Below are positions 3,538 through 34,600 of a stretch of DNA of 39,106 bases, piece by piece. The translations under genes were made by a program, and so were the position numbers. The number at the start of each line of letters is the position of its first letter. The stretch's first letter is position 1. The notes beneath the pieces were generated by a model that worked only from the letters and a program-made list of their open reading frames with translations, was not told the origin of the DNA and made no database searches. Source of the stretch: a virus; the UHGV virus genome UHGV-1488538. The stretch is one strand, 5' to 3'.

Positions 3538-4455
3538 TTACATAGATGTTTCGTTTAATTCTTCCCGACGAACGCTGTAAACGTCGGTGGCTTTTGCCAG
3601 CAGTTCGTCATCATCTGAAAGTTTTTGTGCAATGTATTTGTAAGCCTTATCCAGTTCGGAGACAGTGCTGTAATTCATCGCTGCGCTGGTAAAGGCCATC
3701 AGCATTTCTTCTGGATCACGGCTATCCGCTTTACGCGTTTGCTCATCATGCTTTTTCACTGGTTTAGCGTTGATCAGACTGTTCATGCTGGATGCTGTGC
3801 CGTGCTTTGCCTGACTTCTTGGAGTTACGTCACGTTCAATAATGTCAGGTGAGTCGATATATTTACCTTCCATTTCCTCAGCTGTGGCTTGTTGACCAAT
3901 CTCCGGCCATGCTTTACGTAATGCCTGTGCCTCTGCGCATTTTGCCAACTGCGCATAAGGGCGCTTTTTCCACATGGCATTTGGTGCCGATGTGTCACGC
4001 CCCCCAGTTGCATAGTTCTCAATCCAGTATTCTTTGGCGCTAAACTCTACGATTTCCCCGCTTGCCATTCGCTTGCTGACGGTGTACTTACACCACTGAG
4101 GGAAGGTAACCTCCACGCCTGAAAGCGTTTGTGTTACATCTGGACCGAACTCAGGTTCATTAGCGCCTGCGTAATCGCCGGAACGGTAGGCCTGAATGCG
4201 ATAAAGTCCAATGCCAGGCATGACCACGTCGCGCCATTCATTCTTTCCACTCTTCGAGTCTTTAACACTCATTGGTACCAGGTGTACCGGCTTAAGAAGA
4301 GGATCGAGTTGACGCGCCCGGCAGTAATCGACTGCCATCATTACCGATTCATCTTTTGCCCCAGGGTAAATACTGTTTTTCAGAGCGCTCCATGTAACTT
4401 CATCGATTCCCCGAATAGCCAACACATCATTGGTGATTGCAATTTCGTTGCTCAT
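3538..4455 (-). CDS. RecT/Bet-family single-strand annealing protein
   Basis: Motifs GLYRIQAYRSG and WKKRPYAQLAKCAEAQALRKAW resemble the RecT/Bet signature; likely start ATG at 4455 overlaps exonuclease stop (ATGA); track ORF to 4482. Confidence 0.8.
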   Translation of the reverse strand: MSNEIAITNDVLAIRGIDEVTWSALKNSIYPGAKDESVMMAVDYCRARQLDPLLKPVHLVPMSVKDSKSGKNEWRDVVMPGIGLYRIQAYRSGDYAGANEPEFGPDVTQTLSGVEVTFPQWCKYTVSKRMASGEIVEFSAKEYWIENYATGGRDTSAPNAMWKKRPYAQLAKCAEAQALRKAWPEIGQQATAEEMEGKYIDSPDIIERDVTPRSQAKHGTASSMNSLINAKPVKKHDEQTRKADSRDPEEMLMAFTSAAMNYSTVSELDKAYKYIAQKLSDDDELLAKATDVYSVRREELNETSM

Positions 4456-5273
4456 ACGTACATATCCTGTTTGCGTGCCCACTCAGGGCGTTTAATAATT
4501 TCCACGCCGCCCCATTCATCGCTGATGCGGCATTCGTGATAGGTATTCAGATCCCGGCGGAACAGAGCGTGCCCGGCATCGACATCCGGCGCATCCAGCC
4601 CGAACACGCGTACCGGATACCGACCACAATCAATGCTTTCGCTCACGGCAAGAAAGAAAAAACCATGCGGCTGACCAGTAACCCTCATTGCGCCTTCGCG
4701 GTACATTGCGTCCTGCACGTGGTAGCGGAATTCCTCGATGTGACGTGCAAAACGGTCCATATCTGCAACCTTTTTCACGTCGACGATCACGTTGTGCTCG
4801 TTCAGCCATTTGTCTGGACGAATTCGGCACAACTCACCCGTCTCTTCATCGTTCCAGTACATTGATGCTTCGCAGTAACCAGGTGCTTCCAGCATCCAGC
4901 GTGCCGCCGGGTGAGCCATTGCGCTATCACGCATCAGCTCCAGTTTCCGCCACTGCTCGGCATCAAGTACCGTAATCCCCATATCCGCTACATCACGAAG
5001 AAATGCTTCTTCGTCAGCTTTACCTTGTTTCGTCCGACGATCGAACTTCGGTGAAACAATGAAGCGTTTGTCGAATTCTCCAGGCTCCAGAAGCAGACAG
5101 TGCAATGCGGTTCCCATATCCAGTGCAGACTTTTTCTCTTCGTCTTCTGGTGCTGCCTGAACCCATTTAAGAAGCGCCGGATTCTTGGCAACCATGTCCA
5201 GTTGCGACTTACTCACGCCGTCACCGGCGTGGTAGTCTTCGTTGCTGATGTCGAAATAAATTCCCGGTTTCAT
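4452..5273 (-). CDS. RecE-like exonuclease (PD-(D/E)XK)
   Basis: 273 aa, N-terminus MKPGIYFDISNEDYHAG typical of phage exonuclease VIII-like nucleases; partner of the annealing protein. Confidence 0.7.
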   Translation of the reverse strand: MKPGIYFDISNEDYHAGDGVSKSQLDMVAKNPALLKWVQAAPEDEEKKSALDMGTALHCLLLEPGEFDKRFIVSPKFDRRTKQGKADEEAFLRDVADMGITVLDAEQWRKLELMRDSAMAHPAARWMLEAPGYCEASMYWNDEETGELCRIRPDKWLNEHNVIVDVKKVADMDRFARHIEEFRYHVQDAMYREGAMRVTGQPHGFFFLAVSESIDCGRYPVRVFGLDAPDVDAGHALFRRDLNTYHECRISDEWGGVEIIKRPEWARKQDMYV

Positions 5274-5584
5274 GCCGCGTCCCTCTGTCCATCAAGCTGA
5301 TCCGCCAGATCCCAGCGCGCTATAATTGCCATTGCCTCGCGCCGGTAGGCATCCATCAGTTCTTCGAACTCAGGGCTGTCTTTAGCAGCCTCCAGCACTT
5401 CCTGACGAACGCCTTTGCCTGTTACAACGTCGAAAGTTGAGGACAGTTGATGAAGTCGGATGCTCTCAATCAGTTCAACTTGTCGGTCATATAGCTGTTC
5501 TGACAGGCGGTAGTCCTTGTCGAATGCCAGCATGATTTTTTGAAGATTTTTCTGCTGATTAACGTTCATTATCAGCCCTCCCAT
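5270..5584 (-). CDS. Hypothetical early protein (104 aa; possible start at 5569)
   Basis: ORF track; operon position between first leftward gene and exonuclease. Confidence 0.55.
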   Translation of the reverse strand: MGGLIMNVNQQKNLQKIMLAFDKDYRLSEQLYDRQVELIESIRLHQLSSTFDVVTGKGVRQEVLEAAKDSPEFEELMDAYRREAMAIIARWDLADQLDGQRDAA

Positions 5585-5724
5585 ATCTCGTTATCGTTGG
5601 CTACATCGCGAGCTTCTTTGCTGACGAAAGCCCACTTAATGCCTTCCTGTAAGGTGCGGAACTTCCAGCTCATGAATCCGCATGCAGTAACGCAGTACCA
5701 ACCGTTGATGATTTTCCACTGCAT
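5572..5724 (-). CDS. Small hypothetical protein (50 aa), first gene of leftward early operon
   Basis: Not in ORF track (<60 aa); ATG at 5724 preceded by GAGGT RBS; TGA-ta-ATG junction with next gene; product MQWKIINGWYCVTACGFMSWKF... Confidence 0.4.
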   Translation of the reverse strand: MQWKIINGWYCVTACGFMSWKFRTLQEGIKWAFVSKEARDVANDNEIWEG

Positions 5725-5743
5725 AACTTGTTACCTCGGTCTG

Positions 5744-5758
5744 TTACCGTTGAGGTAA
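5744..5758. promoter_or_regulatory. Operator TTACC-GTTGA-GGTAA (OL-like, over transcription start of leftward operon)
   Basis: Perfect 5+5 palindrome; lies just downstream of a TTGACA -35 (5781-5786, minus strand). Confidence 0.7.
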
Positions 5759-5805
5759 TAATTATGCGTATTTGGTTTGATGTCAATAGATATGAGTTAA
5801 AAAAA

Positions 5806-5820
5806 TTACCCATTAGGTAA
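5806..5820. promoter_or_regulatory. Operator TTACC-CATTA-GGTAA (OL-like, upstream of -35)
   Basis: Perfect palindrome about 20 bp upstream of the TTGACA -35. Confidence 0.7.
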
Positions 5821-5831
5821 TAGTATAGGCA

Positions 5832-5856
5832 ATAAAAAAGCCGCCAGAAGGCGGCT
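5832..5856 (-). terminator. Rho-independent terminator after repressor gene (GCCGCC-ttct-GGCGGC plus U-run on minus strand)
   Basis: 6-bp GC stem followed by T-tract on the minus strand, 20 bp past the repressor stop. Confidence 0.7.
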
Positions 5857-5877
5857 TACTTACTGAAGAGTATGATT

Positions 5878-6462
5878 TTATTGTTTGTTTTTTTCGTTCT
5901 GGTTGATGACAAATTCAATGTAACTTTCGATCTTTGCTTTCTCGGTTTCGGGTAACAATGCGTAGCGCGAGCGGTCATAGTTGATAGTCGCAGGGTCGTG
6001 CGGGTGAATCAGTAGTTCATATCCGTGACGCCCGAATGCGGATGCAACATTCTCCAGGGTGGAAATGGAAACGCTGACCTCATTGTTTAACAGGCGACTG
6101 ATTGTCACCTGGGCGACGCCGGATGCGCGGTGAAGTTTTCCCTGAGTTGAAAGGTCGCGGCTTTCACTCATCCAGCGTTCCAGGTTGTGAGCTGCCAGCT
6201 GACCAATGTCGCTTGGGCCGACAGGCTGAAAACCTTCCTGAGAAAGCGAGCGATCGATATCAAGCCAGTTACGGGGTTTATTGGCGGCAGCTTCAATTTT
6301 TCGCGCAACCTGGTCGCCGATAACCTTCTTGCCAAGAGCCCAGCGGTTTACCAGATTTGCCTGAGTTCCAAGTTTTTCTGCCATCCGCGTCTGAACACCA
6401 TTGAATTCACGGTCGATCAAGTCGTTGAGATTTTGCCTGCGGACGTCCTGGATACTTTTCAT
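5878..6462 (-). CDS. Immunity repressor, tandem HTH (XRE-like), no peptidase S24 domain
   Basis: 194 aa; two HTH-like segments (TRMAEKLGTQANLVNRWALGKK and ASGVAQVTISRLLNNEVSVSISTLENV); divergent from Cro-like gene with operator cluster between. Confidence 0.75.
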   Translation of the reverse strand: MKSIQDVRRQNLNDLIDREFNGVQTRMAEKLGTQANLVNRWALGKKVIGDQVARKIEAAANKPRNWLDIDRSLSQEGFQPVGPSDIGQLAAHNLERWMSESRDLSTQGKLHRASGVAQVTISRLLNNEVSVSISTLENVASAFGRHGYELLIHPHDPATINYDRSRYALLPETEKAKIESYIEFVINQNEKNKQ

Positions 6463-6517
6463 TTTCTGGAAAATCGCCTCATATATGAATCAGTAGATGA
6501 TTCAATTTAAAGCAATA

Positions 6518-6532
6518 TTACCCAACAGGTAA
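6518..6532. promoter_or_regulatory. Operator TTACC-CAACA-GGTAA (OR-like site 1)
   Basis: Perfect palindrome between divergent repressor and cro-like genes. Confidence 0.7.
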
Positions 6533-6534
6533 AT

Positions 6535-6549
6535 GCACCCCATAGGTAA
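6535..6549. promoter_or_regulatory. Degenerate operator GCACC-CCATA-GGTAA (OR-like site 2)
   Basis: One perfect half-site, 2 mismatches in the other; 3 bp from site 1. Confidence 0.4.
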
Positions 6550-6565
6550 CTATCCTTGATTTTTG

Positions 6566-6580
6566 TTACCTTATGGGTGA
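6566..6580. promoter_or_regulatory. Operator TTACC-TTATG-GGTGA (OR-like site 3, within spacer of putative cro promoter)
   Basis: 1 mismatch; sits between candidate -35 TTGATT (6556-6561) and -10 GAATAT (6579-6584). Confidence 0.55.
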
Positions 6581-6616
6581 ATATTTATTATCTGAAATAA
6601 ATATCAGGCAATAGCT

Positions 6617-6847
6617 ATGAGCGATAACGGACATTTCGATTTCAAAAAGCACTGGCTTGCACTTACTCCGGATGAGCGTGAAGCCTTCGCACAGGAAGCC
6701 GGAACGACGAGTCACTATATCCAGACTCACTTAACAGGTAAGCGCAAAATGCCAGGTAAGGTATTGATGAATGGGCTTTTTAAAGCCTGTAAAACAAGAC
6801 AATGGCTGCGCTCAAAAGCGGAACTGGCATACTTCTTCTACTCATGA
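6617..6847 (+). CDS. Cro-like small regulator (YdaS-like HTH)
   Basis: 76 aa; first rightward gene divergent from repressor. Confidence 0.6.
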   Translation: MSDNGHFDFKKHWLALTPDEREAFAQEAGTTSHYIQTHLTGKRKMPGKVLMNGLFKACKTRQWLRSKAELAYFFYS

Positions 6848-6869
6848 TATCTGGCAACAACCCTCTGTA

Positions 6870-6893
6870 GACCGCCATCCGGCGGTCTTTTCA
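6870..6893 (+). terminator. Rho-independent terminator after cro-like gene (GACCGCC-atcc-GGCGGTC-TTTT)
   Basis: 7-bp stem plus T-run; tR1-like position. Confidence 0.65.
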
Positions 6894-6902
6894 TATCTAT
6901 TC

Positions 6903-6917
6903 GTACCTCAAAGGTAA
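6903..6917. promoter_or_regulatory. Operator-like site GTACC-TCAAA-GGTAA
   Basis: 1 mismatch; immediately follows the terminator. Confidence 0.45.
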
Positions 6918-6997
6918 TAAAAAACCAAATCTGGTTGATCTTTTTTTTGTGTCAGCACAAAATAACCGTAATCCCAATACTAATAACAGGGCTTACC

Positions 6998-12288: not shown

Positions 12289-12884
12289 TGATGCCTGCTG
12301 AACCTAAAACCTATAAACGCAAATCAACGCAATTTAAGCCACTAACAGCAATGCAGGAGGCTTATTGCCAGTCATACATCAAAACGCCTGAAAACCAGAC
12401 TCAGGCAGCGATTAACGCAGGATTCTCCCCAAATACAGCGGCAGTTAAAGCCAGTGTCATGATGCGCGATGAACGCATTCAAAAACGGATTGCCGAGTTG
12501 ATGGAGGAGCGCAACAAACGAATGCGTGTCAGTGCTGATTACGTTCTCATGCGCCTGGTGGAGATCGACCAGATGGACGTGATCGACATCCTCAACGACG
12601 ATGGGAGCCTTAAACCAATCCGTGAGTGGCCGAAAATCTGGCGCACTACGCTTAGTGGCTTTGATCTGTCATCGACCATCATGAACATGAACGAGGATTC
12701 AATAGAGACAATCCTCAAAAAAATTAAATGGCCTGACAAGGTGAAGAACCTTGAGCTGATTGGTAAGCATGTTGATGTCAACGCATTCAAAGAACGTCTG
12801 GATGTTAATGTGAATGTGACAATTGCTGATCGCATAGCAGCAGCCAGGAAGCGACTCAAAGAACGTCAGGATGGTAATCAGTGA
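12288..12884 (+). CDS. Terminase small subunit
   Basis: Position immediately upstream of large terminase with 4-nt overlap; start at ATG 12288 (track ORF from 12210). Confidence 0.7.
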   Translation: MMPAEPKTYKRKSTQFKPLTAMQEAYCQSYIKTPENQTQAAINAGFSPNTAAVKASVMMRDERIQKRIAELMEERNKRMRVSADYVLMRLVEIDQMDVIDILNDDGSLKPIREWPKIWRTTLSGFDLSSTIMNMNEDSIETILKKIKWPDKVKNLELIGKHVDVNAFKERLDVNVNVTIADRIAAARKRLKERQDGNQ

Positions 12885-14356
12885 CAGATACAGCGTTATC
12901 TCCTGAAGAGCAGTTAATCGAGGATATTGCAGGGTTCACTCACGATCCGCTTGGCTATGCCCTCTATGCGTTCCCGTGGGGGGAAGATGGGACTGAACTG
13001 GCACATGCCACCGGTCCACGTCAGTGGCAGGCTGATGCGTTCCGAGAGATACGTGATCACCTGCAGAATCCAGAGACGCGCTATCAGCCGCTTATGCTGG
13101 CACGCGCTTCGGGTCACGGTATTGGTAAATCCGCATTCATCTCAATGCTGATCAACTGGGGCATGTCCACTTGCGAGGATTGTAAGGTTGTGGTGACCGC
13201 CAACACCGACAACCAGCTACGAACGAAGACCTGGCCGGAAATTATCAAGTGGTCGAACCTTGCTATCACGAAAGACTGGTTTACCTGTACCGCTACCGCG
13301 ATGTACAGCAATGATCCTGGACACGACAAGCGGTGGCGAGCTGACGCAATACCCTGGTCTGAGCACAACACTGAGGCATTCGCCGGACTACACAACGAGC
13401 GCAAACGCATCATCGTGGTATTCGATGAAGCGTCGAACATTGCGGATCTGGTGTGGGAAGTTGCTGAGGGTGCGCTTACGGACGAAGACACTGAGATTAT
13501 CTGGGTGGCGTTCGGAAACCCTACACGTAACACCGGGCGTTTTCGCGAATGTTTCCGCAAATATAAACACCGCTGGAAAACTGCGCAGATTGACAGCCGG
13601 ACGGTGGAAGGCACTAACAAACAGCAGTTGCAGAAATGGGTTGATGACTACGGGGAAGACAGCGACTTCGTTAAAATCCGTGTGCGCGGCATATTCCCGG
13701 ATGCATCTGAATTGCAGTTTATCCCTACCGGCCTTACTGACGAGGCAATGAAACGGGTGGTAACCGCTGCGCAGGTTGCACATGCTCCGGTGATAATCGG
13801 CGTTGACCCGGCATACTCCGGCGTTGATGACGCTGTGATATACCTGCGGCAGGGGCTGCACAGTAAGGTGCTGTGGACTGGCAACAAGACCACTGACGAT
13901 CTGATTATGGCGAAGCGTATCGCTGACTTTGAAGACCAGTACCAGGCTGACGCAGTGTTCATCGACTTCGGTTACGGAACTGGTCTGAAGTCAATCGGTG
14001 ATGGCTGGGGTCGTACATGGCAACTTGTTCCGTTCGGTGGCGCGTCTACTGACCCGCAGATGCTCAACAAGCGTGGGGAGATGTTCAACTCATGCAAGAC
14101 ATGGCTGAGGCTGGGCGGCATGCTGGATGACCAGGAAACAGCGGACGACCTGTCTGCGGCAGAGTACAAAGTTCGAGTGGACGGTAAAATCGTTATCGAA
14201 CCGAAGGAAGATATCAAGGAGCGGCTTGGGCGTTCTCCTGGTAAAGGCGATGCGCTACTGCTGACGTTTGCGTTCCCTGTGTCGAAGCGTCTGCGAATTC
14301 CCGGGCAGCAGAACCAGCAAGGCAAGGCCATCACAGATTACGATCCATATGCTTAA
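12881..14356 (+). CDS. Terminase large subunit
   Basis: 491 aa; Walker A-like GHGIGKS; size and position. Confidence 0.9.
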   Translation: MTDTALSPEEQLIEDIAGFTHDPLGYALYAFPWGEDGTELAHATGPRQWQADAFREIRDHLQNPETRYQPLMLARASGHGIGKSAFISMLINWGMSTCEDCKVVVTANTDNQLRTKTWPEIIKWSNLAITKDWFTCTATAMYSNDPGHDKRWRADAIPWSEHNTEAFAGLHNERKRIIVVFDEASNIADLVWEVAEGALTDEDTEIIWVAFGNPTRNTGRFRECFRKYKHRWKTAQIDSRTVEGTNKQQLQKWVDDYGEDSDFVKIRVRGIFPDASELQFIPTGLTDEAMKRVVTAAQVAHAPVIIGVDPAYSGVDDAVIYLRQGLHSKVLWTGNKTTDDLIMAKRIADFEDQYQADAVFIDFGYGTGLKSIGDGWGRTWQLVPFGGASTDPQMLNKRGEMFNSCKTWLRLGGMLDDQETADDLSAAEYKVRVDGKIVIEPKEDIKERLGRSPGKGDALLLTFAFPVSKRLRIPGQQNQQGKAITDYDPYA

Positions 14357-14407
14357 TCCGCTGGTGGGGATAATGTCGTTGATATCCTCTGATGAGGATA
14401 AAACAAA

Positions 14408-14431
14408 GCCAGCTCATCGGCTGGCTGTTTG
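14408..14431 (+). terminator. Terminator-like hairpin after terminase (GCCAGC-tcatcg-GCTGGC)
   Basis: 6-bp stem, weak T tail. Confidence 0.45.
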
Positions 14432-14446: not shown

Positions 14447-14866
14447 TTACTTAATGGCATTAAATCCAGCGTTGATGGCTTCCGCAATATTGATGGCACT
14501 TGTTTTATCGAAGTGCCCATTCTGAATAAGCGCCGCATGCAGGCATTGTAACTTCATGTTGTATAAGTGTTCGCTCATGTAATCATTATCACTTTTTGCT
14601 TTAGCGTAAACAGCGCGAGAAATATCAAAAACATCGCCTTTTTCCATTTCAGAACGTTGTGCTGTTATCCAGTCATGGAACGTAACGCTAGTACCATGGT
14701 CTTCGCTAAGAGTTAACCCGGCCAGTCCCTCACTCTGAATTACTTCGTAATGCATTTCATTACCAGCAAAAACGCCATAAAAAATGCAGTCTTCAGCCTG
14801 AACGATACGAGAATATTTTAATGGCCATTCATTTAGATACTTAGCCAACATATCAATTGTCTTCAT
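14447..14866 (-). CDS. Hypothetical protein (139 aa), opposite-strand moron
   Basis: AAGGTGAG RBS; transcribed against flanking late genes. Confidence 0.6.
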   Translation of the reverse strand: MKTIDMLAKYLNEWPLKYSRIVQAEDCIFYGVFAGNEMHYEVIQSEGLAGLTLSEDHGTSVTFHDWITAQRSEMEKGDVFDISRAVYAKAKSDNDYMSEHLYNMKLQCLHAALIQNGHFDKTSAINIAEAINAGFNAIK

Positions 14867-14875
14867 GATCTCACC

Positions 14876-14900
14876 TTAAAAAATGCCCGGCGAACCGGGC
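14876..14900 (-). terminator. Hairpin GCCCGG-ttcg-CCGGGC plus U-run (minus strand)
   Basis: Directly upstream of moron RBS. Confidence 0.5.
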
Positions 14901-14977
14901 GAACTGGAAGCAATGAGTTATGCCTTCCGTGGCTGTACGGGTTTACAGCATGAAGTCATCGCAATGGCGTCCTGCTG

Positions 14978-15020
14978 TAAAAAGGGCGGTGATAGTCCTT
15001 CAAGGGAAACTATCACCGCC
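14978..15020 (-). terminator. Strong rho-independent terminator 3' of tRNA (12-bp stem GGCGGTGATAGT, U-run)
   Basis: 12-bp perfect inverted repeat followed by T-tract on the minus strand. Confidence 0.75.
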
Positions 15021-15063
15021 AAGCACCTGGAACTTCTGGCATCACGGTCCTTAGGCGTGATTC

Positions 15064-15140
15064 TGGCGTGGCATGCAGGATTCGAACCTGCGACCAACCG
15101 CTTAGAAGGCGGTTGCTCTGTCCAACTGAGCTAATGCCAC
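15064..15140 (-). tRNA. tRNA-Arg (anticodon UCU)
   Basis: 77-nt cloverleaf folded by hand on the minus strand: 7-bp acceptor stem GTGGCAT/ATGCCAC, D-arm GCTC/GAGC, anticodon stem ACCGC/GCGGT with loop CTTCTAA, T-arm GCAGG-TTCGAAT-CCTGC, encoded CCA. Confidence 0.9.
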
Positions 15141-15462
15141 AACGCTGAGAGCACTTAGCCTGTTAAGGCGCCACACTTTGTCGCGGCTCCATAAATGCTC
15201 TCATCGTTGTACCCTCGTCTCTTCCGAGGCGTCACACCGAATCGCCGGGATGGTGAATCCCCGTGCGCGGAATAAAACCGCTCGACTTGCACATTCCGGC
15301 TACCTGGTTCGTTTGCCACAGCCAGGGAGGGTGCCCCTTAAACGTATCCAGACCGCTATCGGCGCATGTGCCATACGCCGTACTGCTCAAAATAAAAGCT
15401 CACCCCACCTGTTCAATTTAACGACAAGCCAGTCAGGTTAATAACCGGAATGAACTCTTTGC

Positions 15463-15477
15463 TTACCTGAAGGGTAA
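15463..15477. promoter_or_regulatory. Operator TTACC-TGAAG-GGTAA upstream of virion operon
   Basis: Perfect palindrome about 90 bp upstream of first virion-module gene. Confidence 0.65.
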
Positions 15478-15567
15478 TAATTTGTGCGTTAAATGTCAAC
15501 TGTCTACGATAAATAAATCATATGTGGTTAAATTGGTAATAATTTAATTACGTACGGAGTCATTGAT

Positions 15568-15788: not shown

Positions 15789-17468
15789 ATGGCGGAAACA
15801 ACTAAAGAGCGATTGAACAAACAGTTCGCACAACTTGAAAGCGAGCGTCAGTCGTTCGAGCCGCACTGGCGCGAGTTGAGTGATTACATCAACCCGCGTG
15901 GTTCCCGCTTTCTGACTTCTGAGGTCAACCGTAACGATCGACGCAATACACGCATTATTGATTCGACCGGGACTATGGCGGCGCGCACTCTCGCCAGCGG
16001 CATGATGTCAGGCATCACAAGCCCCGCGCGTCCGTGGTTTCGCCTGGCTACGCCAGATCCTGAAATGATGGATTATGGCCCTGTTAAGTTGTGGCTTGAG
16101 GCGGTGCAGAACCGCATGAACGATATGTTCAATAAGTCGAATCTCTACCAGTCTCTTCCGCAGTTATACGGAAGCCTCGGCACATACAGCACTGGTGCAA
16201 TGGCGGTGCTGGAGGATGACGAGGACATCATTCGCACAATGCCATTCCCGATAGGCAGTTACTACCTGGCTAACTCACCTCGTGGCAGTGTGGACACCTG
16301 TTTTCGCAAGTTCTCTATGACTGTTCGTCAGCTTGTTCAGGAGTTCGGGCTAAATAACGTCAGCGAATCTGTAAAAAGCATGTGGGAAAGCGGCACCTAC
16401 GAGAAGTGGATTGAAGTGATGCATTCGGTTTACCCGAACATTGACCGCGATACATCGAAGCTGGATAGCAAGAACAAGCCATTCAAATCGGTTTATTACG
16501 AGGTTGGTGGCGATAACGACAAGTTGTTGCGTGAGTCCGGATTCGATGAGTTTCCAATTATGGCTCCGCGCTGGGAAGTTAATGGCGAAGATGTTTATGG
16601 ATCATCATGCCCGGGTATGCTGGCGCTTGGACCTGTTAAGGCATTGCAGCTTCTCCAGAAGCGCAAGTCGCAGTTGATTGATAAAGCCACCAATCCGCCG
16701 ATGGTTGCTCCGACTTCCCTCAAGAATCAGCGTGCCTCCCTTCTTCCTGGCGACATCACGTATATCGATCAGATTACTGGTCAGGATGGCTTCAGGCCTG
16801 CTTATCTGGTTAACCCCAGTACAGCAGATTTGGTGGCAGACATTCAGGACACTCGTCAAATCATTAACAGCGCCTACTTCGTCGATCTGTTCATGATGTT
16901 GCAGAACATCAATACCCGCTCAATGCCTGTTGAAGCGGTGATCGAAATGAAAGAAGAAAAGCTTCTGATGTTGGGGCCGGTTCTGGAGCGTCTGAACGAC
17001 GAATGTCTTAATCCTCTCATTGACCGCGCTTTCTCGATGATGGTGCGTAAAAACATGCTGCCGCCACCGCCTGACGCGATGGAAGGCATTCCCCTGAAGG
17101 TCGAATACATTTCCGTCATGGCTCAGGCGCAGAAGTCTATCGGCCTGTCCAGTCTGGCGTCCACGGTTAACTTCATTGGTCAACTTGCGCAAGCGAAACC
17201 AGAAGCTCTCGACAAACTCAACGTTGATCAGGCGATCGATGCATTCGCTGATATGTCCGGAGTGTCTCCAACCGTCATTGTTCCGCAGGAACAGGTTGAG
17301 CAGGCTCGCCAGCAACGGGCACAGCAGCAACAGCAACAACAAATGATGGCGGTGGGGATGGCGGCGGCACAGGGTGCCAAGACGCTAAGCGAAGCTAAAA
17401 CTTCGGATCCGAGTGTTTTGACAGCTATGGCGAATGCAGTTAGTGGTCAGGGTGGGCAATCACAATGA
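15789..17468 (+). CDS. Portal (head-to-tail connector) protein, T7 gp8-like
   Basis: 559 aa; Gln-rich C-terminus QQRAQQQQQQQMMAVGMAAAQGA resembles the T7 connector C-terminus as recalled; gene order. Confidence 0.8.
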   Translation: MAETTKERLNKQFAQLESERQSFEPHWRELSDYINPRGSRFLTSEVNRNDRRNTRIIDSTGTMAARTLASGMMSGITSPARPWFRLATPDPEMMDYGPVKLWLEAVQNRMNDMFNKSNLYQSLPQLYGSLGTYSTGAMAVLEDDEDIIRTMPFPIGSYYLANSPRGSVDTCFRKFSMTVRQLVQEFGLNNVSESVKSMWESGTYEKWIEVMHSVYPNIDRDTSKLDSKNKPFKSVYYEVGGDNDKLLRESGFDEFPIMAPRWEVNGEDVYGSSCPGMLALGPVKALQLLQKRKSQLIDKATNPPMVAPTSLKNQRASLLPGDITYIDQITGQDGFRPAYLVNPSTADLVADIQDTRQIINSAYFVDLFMMLQNINTRSMPVEAVIEMKEEKLLMLGPVLERLNDECLNPLIDRAFSMMVRKNMLPPPPDAMEGIPLKVEYISVMAQAQKSIGLSSLASTVNFIGQLAQAKPEALDKLNVDQAIDAFADMSGVSPTVIVPQEQVEQARQQRAQQQQQQQMMAVGMAAAQGAKTLSEAKTSDPSVLTAMANAVSGQGGQSQ

Positions 17469-33859: not shown

Positions 33860-33890
33860 TCACCACCGCAACGCCAATTACTGGTGGTGA
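33860..33890 (-). promoter_or_regulatory. Leader hairpin TCACCACC/GGTGGTGA with alternative pairing to ACCACC at ant start codon
   Basis: 8-bp inverted repeat; a third complementary hexamer lies immediately 5' of the ant ATG. Confidence 0.4.
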
Positions 33891-33986
33891 ACTGGACAAG
33901 GTTGGCGTACCGGCCTAAGTGGTACCGGCGTCCTTTCGGACCCCTGCCCAGCCCACCATAATTCGGATATAGCTGTGCTTAACGCA

Positions 33987-34010
33987 TAAAAAAACCACGT
34001 CTGGCGTGGT
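33987..34010 (-). terminator. Intrinsic terminator within ant leader (ACCACG-ccaga-CGTGGT plus U7)
   Basis: Hairpin followed by 7 T on minus strand. Confidence 0.55.
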
Positions 34011-34026
34011 ATGCGCCACTTAGTAA

Positions 34027-34128
34027 CCCGGGACGCCAATCCCGGCACTGGATTTTGCCAGTGCCCGATTACTATGGCACAAGAGGAGTGCGATGTAAAT
34101 TTACTGCAAAGGTAAATATAAGCACTCC
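34027..34128 (-). ncRNA. Candidate structured RNA / cis-regulatory leader upstream of antirepressor
   Basis: Three hairpins (34083-34128 AGGAGTGC...GCACTCCT; 34044-34065 GGCACTGG...CCAGTGCC; 34028-34045 CCGGG...CCCGG) then terminator; no ORF. Confidence 0.4.
34101..34115. promoter_or_regulatory. Operator-like TTACT-GCAAA-GGTAA inside leader hairpin
   Basis: 1 mismatch. Confidence 0.4.
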
Positions 34129-34444: not shown

Positions 34445-34481
34445 GCAAATAATTTGTTTGCTATCCAGCACGTTTTGCAAA

Positions 34482-34496
34482 TTACCTGAAAGGTAA
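34482..34496. promoter_or_regulatory. Operator TTACC-TGAAA-GGTAA
   Basis: Perfect palindrome between LexA box and tailspike gene. Confidence 0.65.
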
Positions 34497-34600
34497 TATC
34501 TATTCATATTCACAGTCTTTCTATCCATATATGGTTTTTTGGGTAATAGAATAACCAGATATGCGGCGCAACGGGTGCTGCGACTATCTGGAGATTTAAC

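Follow-up and report, generated by a model that had tools for sequence, protein, structure and literature searches.

A phage-borne tRNA-Arg(UCU) as a module of a larger conserved RNA in a minus-strand accessory unit of an epsilon15/phiV10-like prophage

That the single tRNA of a temperate phage is one exchangeable part of a longer, conserved and structured RNA is the principal outcome of our analysis of UHGV virus genome UHGV-1488538, a stretch of 39,106 nucleotides (hereafter the window) that represents a complete epsilon15/phiV10-like (Uetakevirus) prophage. A first-pass annotation of this DNA had drawn attention to a minus-strand tRNA-Arg(UCU) with its own strong terminator, followed by a second hairpin and by a 139-aa gene that was taken for a moron, a candidate for lysogenic conversion or defence. 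All of the features that it described were recovered, the tRNA, terminator 1, hairpin 2 and the 139-aa open reading frame (ORF) all lying between terL and the portal gene. Our best explanation, on which we stand evenly balanced, is that they make up the distal portion of a single accessory unit transcribed from the minus strand of an epsilon15/phiV10-like temperate podovirus; this is one joint estimate for the layout of the unit, its early expression, antitermination, the tRNA and the role of the gene taken together. On the minus strand the order is a promoter-like site with an operator, the structured RNA containing the tRNA, a tail hairpin and terminator 1, followed by a leader, hairpin 2 fused to a ribosome-binding site (RBS), the accessory gene and a bidirectional terminator. 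We infer the promoter, the operator function and all processing steps from sequence. The earlier interpretation survives as regards a phage-borne tRNA, a terminator after it and an accessory gene, but not as regards a terminator belonging to the tRNA itself, a promoter for the moron or lysogenic conversion. By themselves a tRNA and a small gene are routine in phiV10-like phages, unlike the RNA in which this tRNA is set.

The conserved structured RNA

The 420 bp from the promoter to the tRNA are annotated either as empty or as dubious ORFs. Sensitive BLAST searches aligned window positions 15381-15141, at approximately 80% identity, with unannotated DNA of widely differing phages, namely the lambdoids mEp460, cdtI, Ayreon, 2H10 and Stx2c phages, the group P1/P7/D6/SJ46, the Klebsiella phage SopranoGao and a Stenotrophomonas phage. 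An nhmmer profile of 37 homologues, chosen as representatives sharing less than 93% identity, had one match in the window (15392-15189, E 1.3e-43), and the profile and covariation together define a minus-strand structured RNA, consisting of a 5' domain and a closing helix, at 15141-15392. The 5' domain is 165 nt long, and its helices, as read from the alignment, are H1, H2a, H2b, H4 and H5. H1 (15360-15380) is a hairpin with the loop GGCAC, H4 (15247-15262) a T-loop-like hairpin with the loop UUCACCA, and H5 (15213-15229) carries the loop GAAGAGA; an invariant 19-mer, GGUAGCCGGAAUGUGCAAG, occupies 15286-15304. In the closing helix GAGAGCA (15196-15202) pairs with UGCUCUC (15147-15153), all of these elements being on the minus strand.

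The evidence for this structure is comparative. In the alignment 87.5% of the cells concerned are paired, and changes on both sides occur at 16 pairs, in 112 cells. The covariation score was 0.307 as against 0.146 after shuffling, a value that none of 500 shuffled alignments reached, and it fell to at most 0.086 when the partners were slid; the fold z-score was -5.3. The closing helix also covaries (GAGCGCAC/GUGCGCUC, AAAGAGCG/CGCUCUUU and GGAAAAGGCG/CGCCGUUUCC) and encloses inserts of variable size. In addition, there is a candidate pseudoknot, GCAC/GUGC, together with two mutually exclusive pairings for GCACAU. The transcribed strand is that of the tRNA, because many of the pairs are G-U, which would be A-C on the other strand.

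Neither Rfam nor the literature yielded a name for this RNA. No Rfam family was found for it at gathering thresholds across the window, at E<=5 for the region or at E<=1 for six related loci, and its invariant sequence blocks were not found in a full-text literature search. On the evidence of Rfam 15 and the searchable literature, the RNA appears to be undescribed. Among known candidates, the prophage small RNAs (sRNAs) of enterohaemorrhagic Escherichia coli and the Pas sRNAs were set aside, being at different loci that adjoin capsid and tail genes. A protein-coding reading of the region was excluded by indels of 1-2 nt and by the G-U-rich covariation, and a type I toxin encoded by the 52-aa or 54-aa minus-strand ORFs is unlikely, since these are not hydrophobic. 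The ORFs that public records place over the tRNA or the RNA, phiV10p04, mEp460 gp37, Ayreon 0037 and a Tyrion hypothetical protein, are very likely spurious (window 14883-15134 and 15178-15441, both plus strand; L005 2443-2811; L133 3061-3180; such numbers denote individual related loci).

Of 5426 complete E. coli genomes, 1840 carried the 165-nt domain, in chromosomal prophages and on P1-like plasmids, and it was almost never under an annotated feature there; a covarying RNA with an invariant core is thus this widespread and yet absent from Rfam 15 and from the records examined. The invariant 19-mer was found on more than 120 contigs of IMG/VR, representing 104 distinct sequences, and at 24 places in about 20 Enterobacterales species. 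Two contigs binned with Oscillospiraceae/Bacillota metagenome-assembled genomes also carry it (L143 and L155); they are most likely mis-binned enterobacterial phage contigs. Wherever the element occurs, its orientation is that of the flanking early transcription unit.

The tRNA-Arg(UCU) and its place in the RNA

The tRNA itself is already known. ARAGORN predicted a single tRNA in the whole window, tRNA-Arg(tct) at 15064-15140 on the minus strand, and so bore out the well-formed tRNA-Arg(UCU) between terminase and portal that had been proposed at this site; Rfam RF00005 scored it at 73.3 bits against a gathering score of 29, placing it in the cloverleaf family. It is 77 nt long, with an acceptor stem of 7 bp, G73 and an encoded CCA. 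When compared with argU of E. coli K-12, 64 of the 77 positions are identical (83%): the anticodon loop CUUCUAA, the T-arm, G73 and CCA are the same, whereas base pairs differ, in a compensatory manner, at three of five positions in the anticodon stem and at most positions in the acceptor stem. This tRNA-Arg already has an annotation in O157 typing phages 9/10, phiv142-3, SPN9TCW, SPC32H and a Klebsiella prophage, and the tRNA-Arg of the Uetakeviruses (phiV10, typing phages 9/10, phiv142-3, ZX5, SPN9TCW and SPC32H) is the same gene, at the same position and on the same strand, as that of the window; 'one tRNA' was reported for ZX5 (PMC9782041). Set against these records the tRNA is no different, and what is new is its context as a module in a larger RNA. 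The 250 nt upstream of the tRNA bear no annotation in any of them.

Comparison of the loci shows that the tRNA is an optional 77-nt module in an RNA of about 410 nt (15392-14979), and that terminator 1 is owned by that RNA. A strong terminator does stand 3' of the tRNA, as claimed, but it belongs to the longer conserved RNA; we revised the earlier view because relatives have a non-tRNA domain, or nothing, at the position of the tRNA. Among 130 loci, 30 have a tRNA-Arg 3' of the RNA, starting 164 nt after the core, and 17 (the P1 type) have a tRNA(CAT) upstream, ending 96 nt before the core, so that a tRNA abuts the element in 47 and is missing from 83. At Uetakevirus-type loci the tRNA lies between ...CGUU|GUGG and CCAGA|AUCACGCCUnAGGACCGUGAU. 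Other members of this type have in the same interval non-tRNA domains of 88-286 nt, closed by GUUGUGGU.../...ACCACAAC and followed by the same tail hairpin, terminator 1 and leader, and the acceptor stem of the tRNA, GUGGCAU/AUGCCAC, occupies the place of the helix GUGGUG/CACCAC that closes these domains. Two further loci, L161 and L162, which were reached independently through a protein look-up, have the RNA core and no tRNA. Epsilon15 has kept the promoter and H1 and lost the RNA core and the tRNA module, the deletion joining two 13-nt TTCCCTTGATGCT repeats; its sequence (L006, approximately 2860-2960) passes straight from the H2 loop into that of terminator 1, and relatives (L013, L044 and L068) carry TTCCCTTGATGCT at both places. 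Epsilon15 thus looks like a deletion derivative from which the RNA core and the tRNA/cargo module were removed. Some inserts at other loci contain perfect T-arm-like hairpins (L077, L100 and L104, for example CCCGGTTCGATTCCGGG, GCGGTTCGATTCCGC and GAAAGGTTCGATTCCTTTC) without an ARAGORN tRNA call, and the cargo of L085 starts with GUGGUUAGCUCAGG, which resembles a decayed tRNA.

Directly 3' of the tRNA is a conserved tail hairpin, AUCACG-CCUAAGGAC-CGUGAU (15041-15061, minus strand), which also stands 3' of the non-tRNA cargo domains of relatives and has a compensatory variant, CACA/UGUG, in L030. Many variants have UUGCUGUGUGUAGUCUU in the tail, ahead of the terminator, a sequence also found in the 3' part of RprA. 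At L008 2131-2250 and at L013, L014, L038, L059, L077, L085 and L104 the motif UUGCUGUGUGUAGUCUU(U/G)GCC followed by the terminator amounts to about the 3' third of RprA, and may be an Hfq-binding element or a seed mimic; the Rfam RprA model (RF00034) scored L008 2131-2250 at 50.2 bits, below its gathering score of 70. The window's own tail (GCCAGAAGUUCCAGGUGCUU) lacks the RprA-like motif. On the minus strand, 15041-14979 is arranged like an Hfq sRNA derived from a 3' external spacer, with a 5' hairpin, about 20 unpaired nucleotides, a terminator hairpin and a U-run, and could be released by 3' processing of the tRNA.

As to what the tRNA might do, supply of rare AGA decoding and a decoy role against anticodon nucleases had both been suggested. 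Per 1000 codons the window has 6.4 AGA and 4.25 AGG, together 17% of its Arg codons, and its AGA/AGG codons, 77 of them AGA, are concentrated in tail, tailspike and replication genes. The E. coli average is about 2 per 1000 for AGA and about 1 for AGG, so that the window plausibly exceeds its host about three-fold. Yet a phage tRNA need not be required for such AGA use, to judge from the tRNA-less epsilon15 and HK022, which have AGA at 4.35 and 9.7 per 1000, respectively; the premise of codon supply, elevated AGA/AGG use, plausibly holds, and its support for a supply role is weak. Phage tRNAs take part in counter-defence against PARIS (PMC11464382) and retron Eco7 (PMC11555353), and in the case of P2-OLD phage tRNAs resist through changes in the anticodon stem (PMC12445682). 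The altered anticodon stem and unchanged anticodon loop of the window tRNA are compatible with a decoy or anti-nuclease role.

Terminators, leader and the variable gene slot

Terminator 1 (14979-15020, minus strand), at the 3' end of the conserved RNA, has 14 pairs, 7 of them G-C, between 15020 and 14985, followed by CUUUUU; the strong terminator reported after the tRNA is therefore real, the 12-bp stem given for it being the uninterrupted core of this longer stem. In mEp460 the RNA stops at a homologous terminator, which precedes the first of the early-left genes. Between the two terminators is a conserved leader (14901-14978, minus strand) with the hairpins ACAGCA...UGCUGU and GGAAGGCA...UGCUUCC, which is nearly invariant in E. 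coli, Klebsiella and Salmonella relatives whichever gene follows. It leads into terminator-like hairpin 2, GCCCGG-UUCG-CCGGGC (stem-loop 14900-14885; with its U-run, AUUUUUU, 14878-14900, minus strand), which is fused to the RBS AAGGUGAG (DNA AAGGTGAG; 14870-14877, minus strand) preceding the ATG at 14866. The scan and the sequence itself agree here with the claim of a second hairpin abutting the RBS of a 139-aa gene. Beyond the accessory gene, a bidirectional terminator (14400-14426, minus-strand hairpin 14426-14407) serves terL on the plus strand and the accessory gene on the minus strand; its plus-strand direction is annotated in phiV10, and it is conserved in phiV10 and epsilon15. The 3' limit of the cargo cassette is set by this conserved terminator.

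A minus-strand scan for G+C-rich hairpins followed by a U-run identified 15020-14985, 14900-14885 and 14426-14407. Between 14200 and 15900 there were four terminator-like sites as against 1.5 +/- 1.3 in shuffled sequence, a modest excess. The two hairpins are nonetheless no product of chance, because relatives in E. coli, Salmonella and Klebsiella preserve both through compensatory changes: GCCCGG/CCGGGC versus GCCCAC/GTGGGC (epsilon15 and L013) for hairpin 2, and GGCGGTGATAGT/ACTATCACCGCC versus GGCGGTGG-CAG/CTG-A-CCACCGCC versus GGCGGTACCAG/CTGGTACCGCC for terminator 1. Because a hairpin with a U-run is fused to the RBS and there is no promoter between, the accessory gene should be reached only by read-through.

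The accessory gene (14447-14866, minus strand; phrog_4846) corresponds to the 139-aa ORF previously noted. In the 28 tRNA-bearing loci examined there is hardly any variation between the tRNA and the RBS, but the gene that follows belongs to one of at least five unrelated families, namely PF13876 (Phage_gp49_66), which fills the slot in phiV10 and epsilon15, phrog_4846, the Tad2-like DUF2829 (PF11195; L010, L094 and L105), membrane plus coiled-coil proteins of 200-300 aa, and a Zn-ribbon protein. The cassette is bounded by the RBS on one side and by the bidirectional terminator on the other, and it is owing to the different slot gene that phiV10 covers 72% of the query. A moron, as defined by Hendrix, is a gene inserted or replaced between adjacent genes and having its own promoter and terminator. 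The 139-aa gene sits in a replaceable slot and has the downstream terminator at 14400-14426, but a consensus scan found no promoter-like site in 14985-14866, where a hairpin abuts the RBS, and the label of moron holds for position and terminator and fails for the promoter. The slot has the high variability and the conserved borders that mark moron or accessory hot spots in temperate phages. The gene itself is a new and uncharacterised occupant of this ordinary accessory slot.

Close homologues of phrog_4846 number 103, all enterobacterial and all 'hypothetical'; an exhaustive profile search returned 31 clusters among 1.8 billion representatives, all of those examined being slot-mates, and distant members in Leclercia and Cronobacter, found by the independent look-up, occupy the same slot. 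The family is a mosaic of small modules. In the Leclercia prophage L161 about 2.5 kb (4421-6946) between the 139-aa homologue and terS, where terL would be expected, are without a gene call, and may hold a pseudogenised or uncalled terL. An AlphaFold model built on a deeper alignment reached a pLDDT of 82.9 (59 for the first model) and shows residues 1-75, at the N-terminus, folded as an alpha/beta domain and residues 93-137, at the C-terminus, as a helical hairpin, with no informative neighbour in BFVD or the PDB. The protein had no sequence match in Pfam, NCBIfam, PADLOC or the PDB, and no profile of Tad2 or of another known anti-defence or defence protein recognised it. Judged by its slot-mates, it is most likely an early accessory factor, for counter-defence or host takeover. 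Tad2 (DUF2829) is an anti-Thoeris sponge (10.1101/2023.05.01.538930); the 139-aa protein is unrelated to it in sequence, matches no known fold, and its gene lacks a promoter of its own. The slot behind the RNA is a compact place in which to mine early counter-defence genes, the 139-aa family being one candidate.

Promoter and repressor operators

A consensus-based scan, the only kind applied, found one promoter-like site upstream of these features, a putative sigma-70 promoter at 15462-15499 on the minus strand with a -35 element TTGACA (15494-15499), a 17-nt spacer and a -10 element TACCCT (15471-15476). It lies approximately 325 nt upstream of the tRNA and 600 nt upstream of the 139-aa gene, in a region conserved in phiV10 and epsilon15. 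A predicted prophage-repressor operator, ATTACCCTTCAGGTAAG (15462-15478), overlaps its -10 element and start site. The 17-bp palindrome ATTACCnnnnnGGTAAT, to which this operator conforms, occurs at ten sites in the window (5743, 5805, 6517, 8848, 8910, 12255, 12273, 15462, 33032 and 34481) as against 0.05 expected. Three of these surround the cI-like and cro-like genes (5743, 5805 and 6517), and others precede several operons, including the start of terS and the tailspike gene; the curated epsilon15 record marks equivalent sites, including that on the promoter -10 element, as 'repressor, lysogeny' binding sites. From this distribution the repressor appears to control many promoters directly, late ones included.

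The unit is accordingly predicted to be silent in the lysogen and active early after induction. Because the operator lies on the promoter -10 element, it is probably an early lytic unit and not one for lysogenic conversion, the role offered earlier for the moron, which is made unlikely by the overlap of a repressor operator with the -10 element of the sole promoter.

Proposed role of the RNA and alternative explanations

Our best guess is that the 5' domain is a cis-acting antiterminator or a scaffold RNA. We would go further only tentatively, suggesting that the 165-nt domain represents a new class of cis-acting, protein-independent (or Nus-assisted) antiterminator which, in many Enterobacterales phages, also serves as a scaffold delivering RNA cargo at the onset of lytic growth; its users would be lambdoid phages without N (the mEp460/LLS/Stx2c type), P1-like phages and Uetakeviruses, and its cargo tRNA-Arg, tRNA-like domains and the RprA-like tail. 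In the lysogen the unit would be repressed, and on induction or infection it would be transcribed early. The 5' domain would render RNA polymerase resistant to terminators in cis and act as a scaffold for RNA cargo, in the manner of a functional analogue of HK022 put or lambda N-nut. Terminator 1 would end most transcripts, giving a discrete RNA, from which RNase P and 3' processing would produce a functional tRNA-Arg(UCU) that might supplement, or if attacked replace, the scarce host argU tRNA for the 77 AGA codons; the accessory gene would be expressed only through read-through of the two terminators.

We prefer antitermination in cis because of the position of the element and of the two terminators that separate the promoter from the 139-aa gene. 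A cI-like repressor gene precedes the element on the same strand in 62 of the 130 loci, with its end 110-130 nt upstream. In mEp460 operators (TTGCnnnnnnnGCAA, common to the cI-cro interval) are directly upstream of the RNA, which would therefore start about 40 nt into the early-left transcript, and in Ayreon the annotated order is cI, terminator, promoter, element. In mEp460, Ayreon and a Stx2c phage alike, the sequence after the element has no N-like ORF. A put RNA is about 70 nt long, has two stem-loops and acts through the zinc-binding domain of the RNA polymerase beta' subunit. The HK022 sites putL and putR are cis-acting, protein-independent processive antiterminators (PMC9378689), and the likeness to them lies in a position at the start of repressor-controlled early operons of lambdoids without N, with terminators downstream (mEp460, Ayreon and a Stx2c phage). 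The RNA described here differs in having a 165-nt core with at least five helices plus cargo and no sequence similarity to put, and antitermination is in its case a proposal. With the boxA-boxB elements of lambda nut and rrn there is a second likeness: in three variants (L033, L046 and L089) a hairpin (AAGCGCCCAnAGGACGCUU) and then a boxA (GCUCUUUAA) directly follow H5 and replace the closing helix, at a fixed offset of +123 to +130 nt from the core 19-mer, the boxA of L089 being exactly that of rrn, UGCUCUUUAACAA. The window and most variants, by contrast, have the closing helix, whose 3' strand (UGCUCUC or UGCUCUUU) resembles boxA but is base-paired. For the mEp460-related phage LLS, a 2025 study noted that N is absent and guessed at a put-like RNA (PMC12315714). 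Should the element be an antiterminator, it would explain how LLS, mEp460 and many Stx2c phages, all lacking N, pass their early terminators, the question which that study raised.

Several findings weigh against this explanation. The boxA occurs in three variants only and not in the window. The nhmmer profile had no match at putL or putR when run against the whole HK022 genome, where nothing scored better than E 0.5, and the RNA is more than twice the size of either. In P1 the element is 2.3 kb from the annotated ban promoters, so that it is not always promoter-proximal. Epsilon15, without the RNA core and the tRNA, has nevertheless kept the leader and the slot gene, and the RNA is therefore not strictly required for keeping that gene. 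Codon supply by the tRNA is weakly supported, given the higher AGA use of tRNA-less HK022, and an anti-defence role for the 139-aa protein is argued from position only, with no match in PADLOC, Pfam, NCBIfam or the PDB or at the level of fold.

The main rival is that the RNA is a stand-alone, trans-acting phage non-coding RNA, either a scaffold of the GOLLD/ROOL kind or an sRNA precursor, used for host manipulation or counter-defence, with read-through into the gene incidental; the tRNA, tRNA-like domain and sRNA-like tail would then be cargo and terminator 1 a plain 3' end. We regard this as possible, though on balance improbable, and a trans-scaffold role and a role as a cis-antiterminator are not exclusive. 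It would account for a terminator belonging to the RNA in all phage types examined, for the high conservation of unpaired blocks, the invariant 19-mer among them, and for an exchangeable cargo which includes inserts with T-arm-like hairpins (GGTTCGATTCC) and, in many variants, the sub-threshold RprA-like tail and terminator. GOLLD and ROOL are likewise phage-encoded and elaborately structured and are found near tRNA islands, GOLLD sometimes having tRNAs in its linker (PMC12286853); a tRNA abuts the present element in 47 of 130 loci and in the window lies inside it. Yet neither the GOLLD (RF01998) nor the ROOL (RF03087) covariance model, nor that of any other Rfam family, matched the region at E<=5 or six other loci at E<=1. 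The RNA is also several-fold smaller, with a 165-nt core and about 410 nt including cargo, and its hosts are Enterobacterales as opposed to Lactobacillales and marine or rumen organisms. In P1, where the element lies between trnI and ban within the C1-controlled ban operon, the ban RBS comes straight after the 5' domain, with neither cargo nor terminator, which gives the domain the look of a cis leader, and the constant position after repressor-controlled early promoters fits a cis role as well. A trans-acting scaffold would provide a genetically tractable E. coli counterpart to GOLLD and ROOL; in either case single tRNAs of temperate phages would be swappable RNA cargo and not stand-alone genes.

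The model of the first-pass annotation, an independent tRNA gene with its own terminator, for AGA supply or as a decoy, beside a moron expressed from the prophage, we consider unlikely. In its favour are an intact, argU-like tRNA, the 17% share of AGA/AGG among Arg codons, a slot as variable as that of a moron, and some slot-mates with membrane and coiled-coil segments like those of exclusion or abortive-infection factors. Against these stand the lack of a promoter-like site between terminator 1, hairpin 2 and the RBS, the operator on the sole upstream promoter and a tRNA that is embedded, and exchangeable, in a larger conserved RNA. Other slot-mates, moreover, are of the anti-defence type (Tad2-like) and not the defence type, and the 139-aa protein has no PADLOC match.

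Less probable still is that the 5' domain is a riboswitch-like leader sensing a ligand or a tRNA, possibly with T-box-like pairing between the UGGC of the H1 loop and the GCCA end of the tRNA. Its size and style are those of an aptamer, with invariant unpaired blocks, the possible GCAC/GUGC pseudoknot and the exclusive GCACAU pairings, the genes downstream are diverse, and the UGGC loop indeed complements the GCCA with which the embedded tRNA ends; but in the window no terminator or RBS-sequestering platform comes directly after the domain, the candidate tertiary pairs are invariant and hence outside covariation testing, and a Klebsiella-phage tRNA has A73 where the loop is still UGGC. Finally, we think it very improbable that the conserved block is a DNA element (a single-strand origin, or a recombination or packaging site) or a small protein gene, in spite of the ORFs annotated over it (mEp460 gp37 and Ayreon 0037) and beside it (phiV10p04) and of the epsilon15 deletion between two 13-bp repeats, since its G-U-rich compensatory changes would become A-C if read from the other strand, indels of 1-2 nt leave no reading frame intact and its orientation is always that of the flanking early unit.

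Genomic setting and other observations

The region is flanked by terL (12881-14356, plus strand) and the portal (head-tail connector) gene (15789-17468), both of which share 97-98% DNA identity with the annotated genes of phiV10, PAS61 and the typing phages. PAS61, phiv142-3, HEMP4 and ZX5 are about 97% identical to the window across most of its length, and the region tested matches the chromosome of E. coli APEC E16002 at 100% identity. Elsewhere in the window, at 33880-34064 on the minus strand, Rfam identified a C4 antisense RNA (66 bits) beside an isrK Hfq-binding RNA (67.7 bits), the pair that constitutes an antirepressor control region of the P1/P7/P22 immI type. One of the repressor operators (34481-34497) is near this region, and the same pair is present in mEp460 (L005 206-394).

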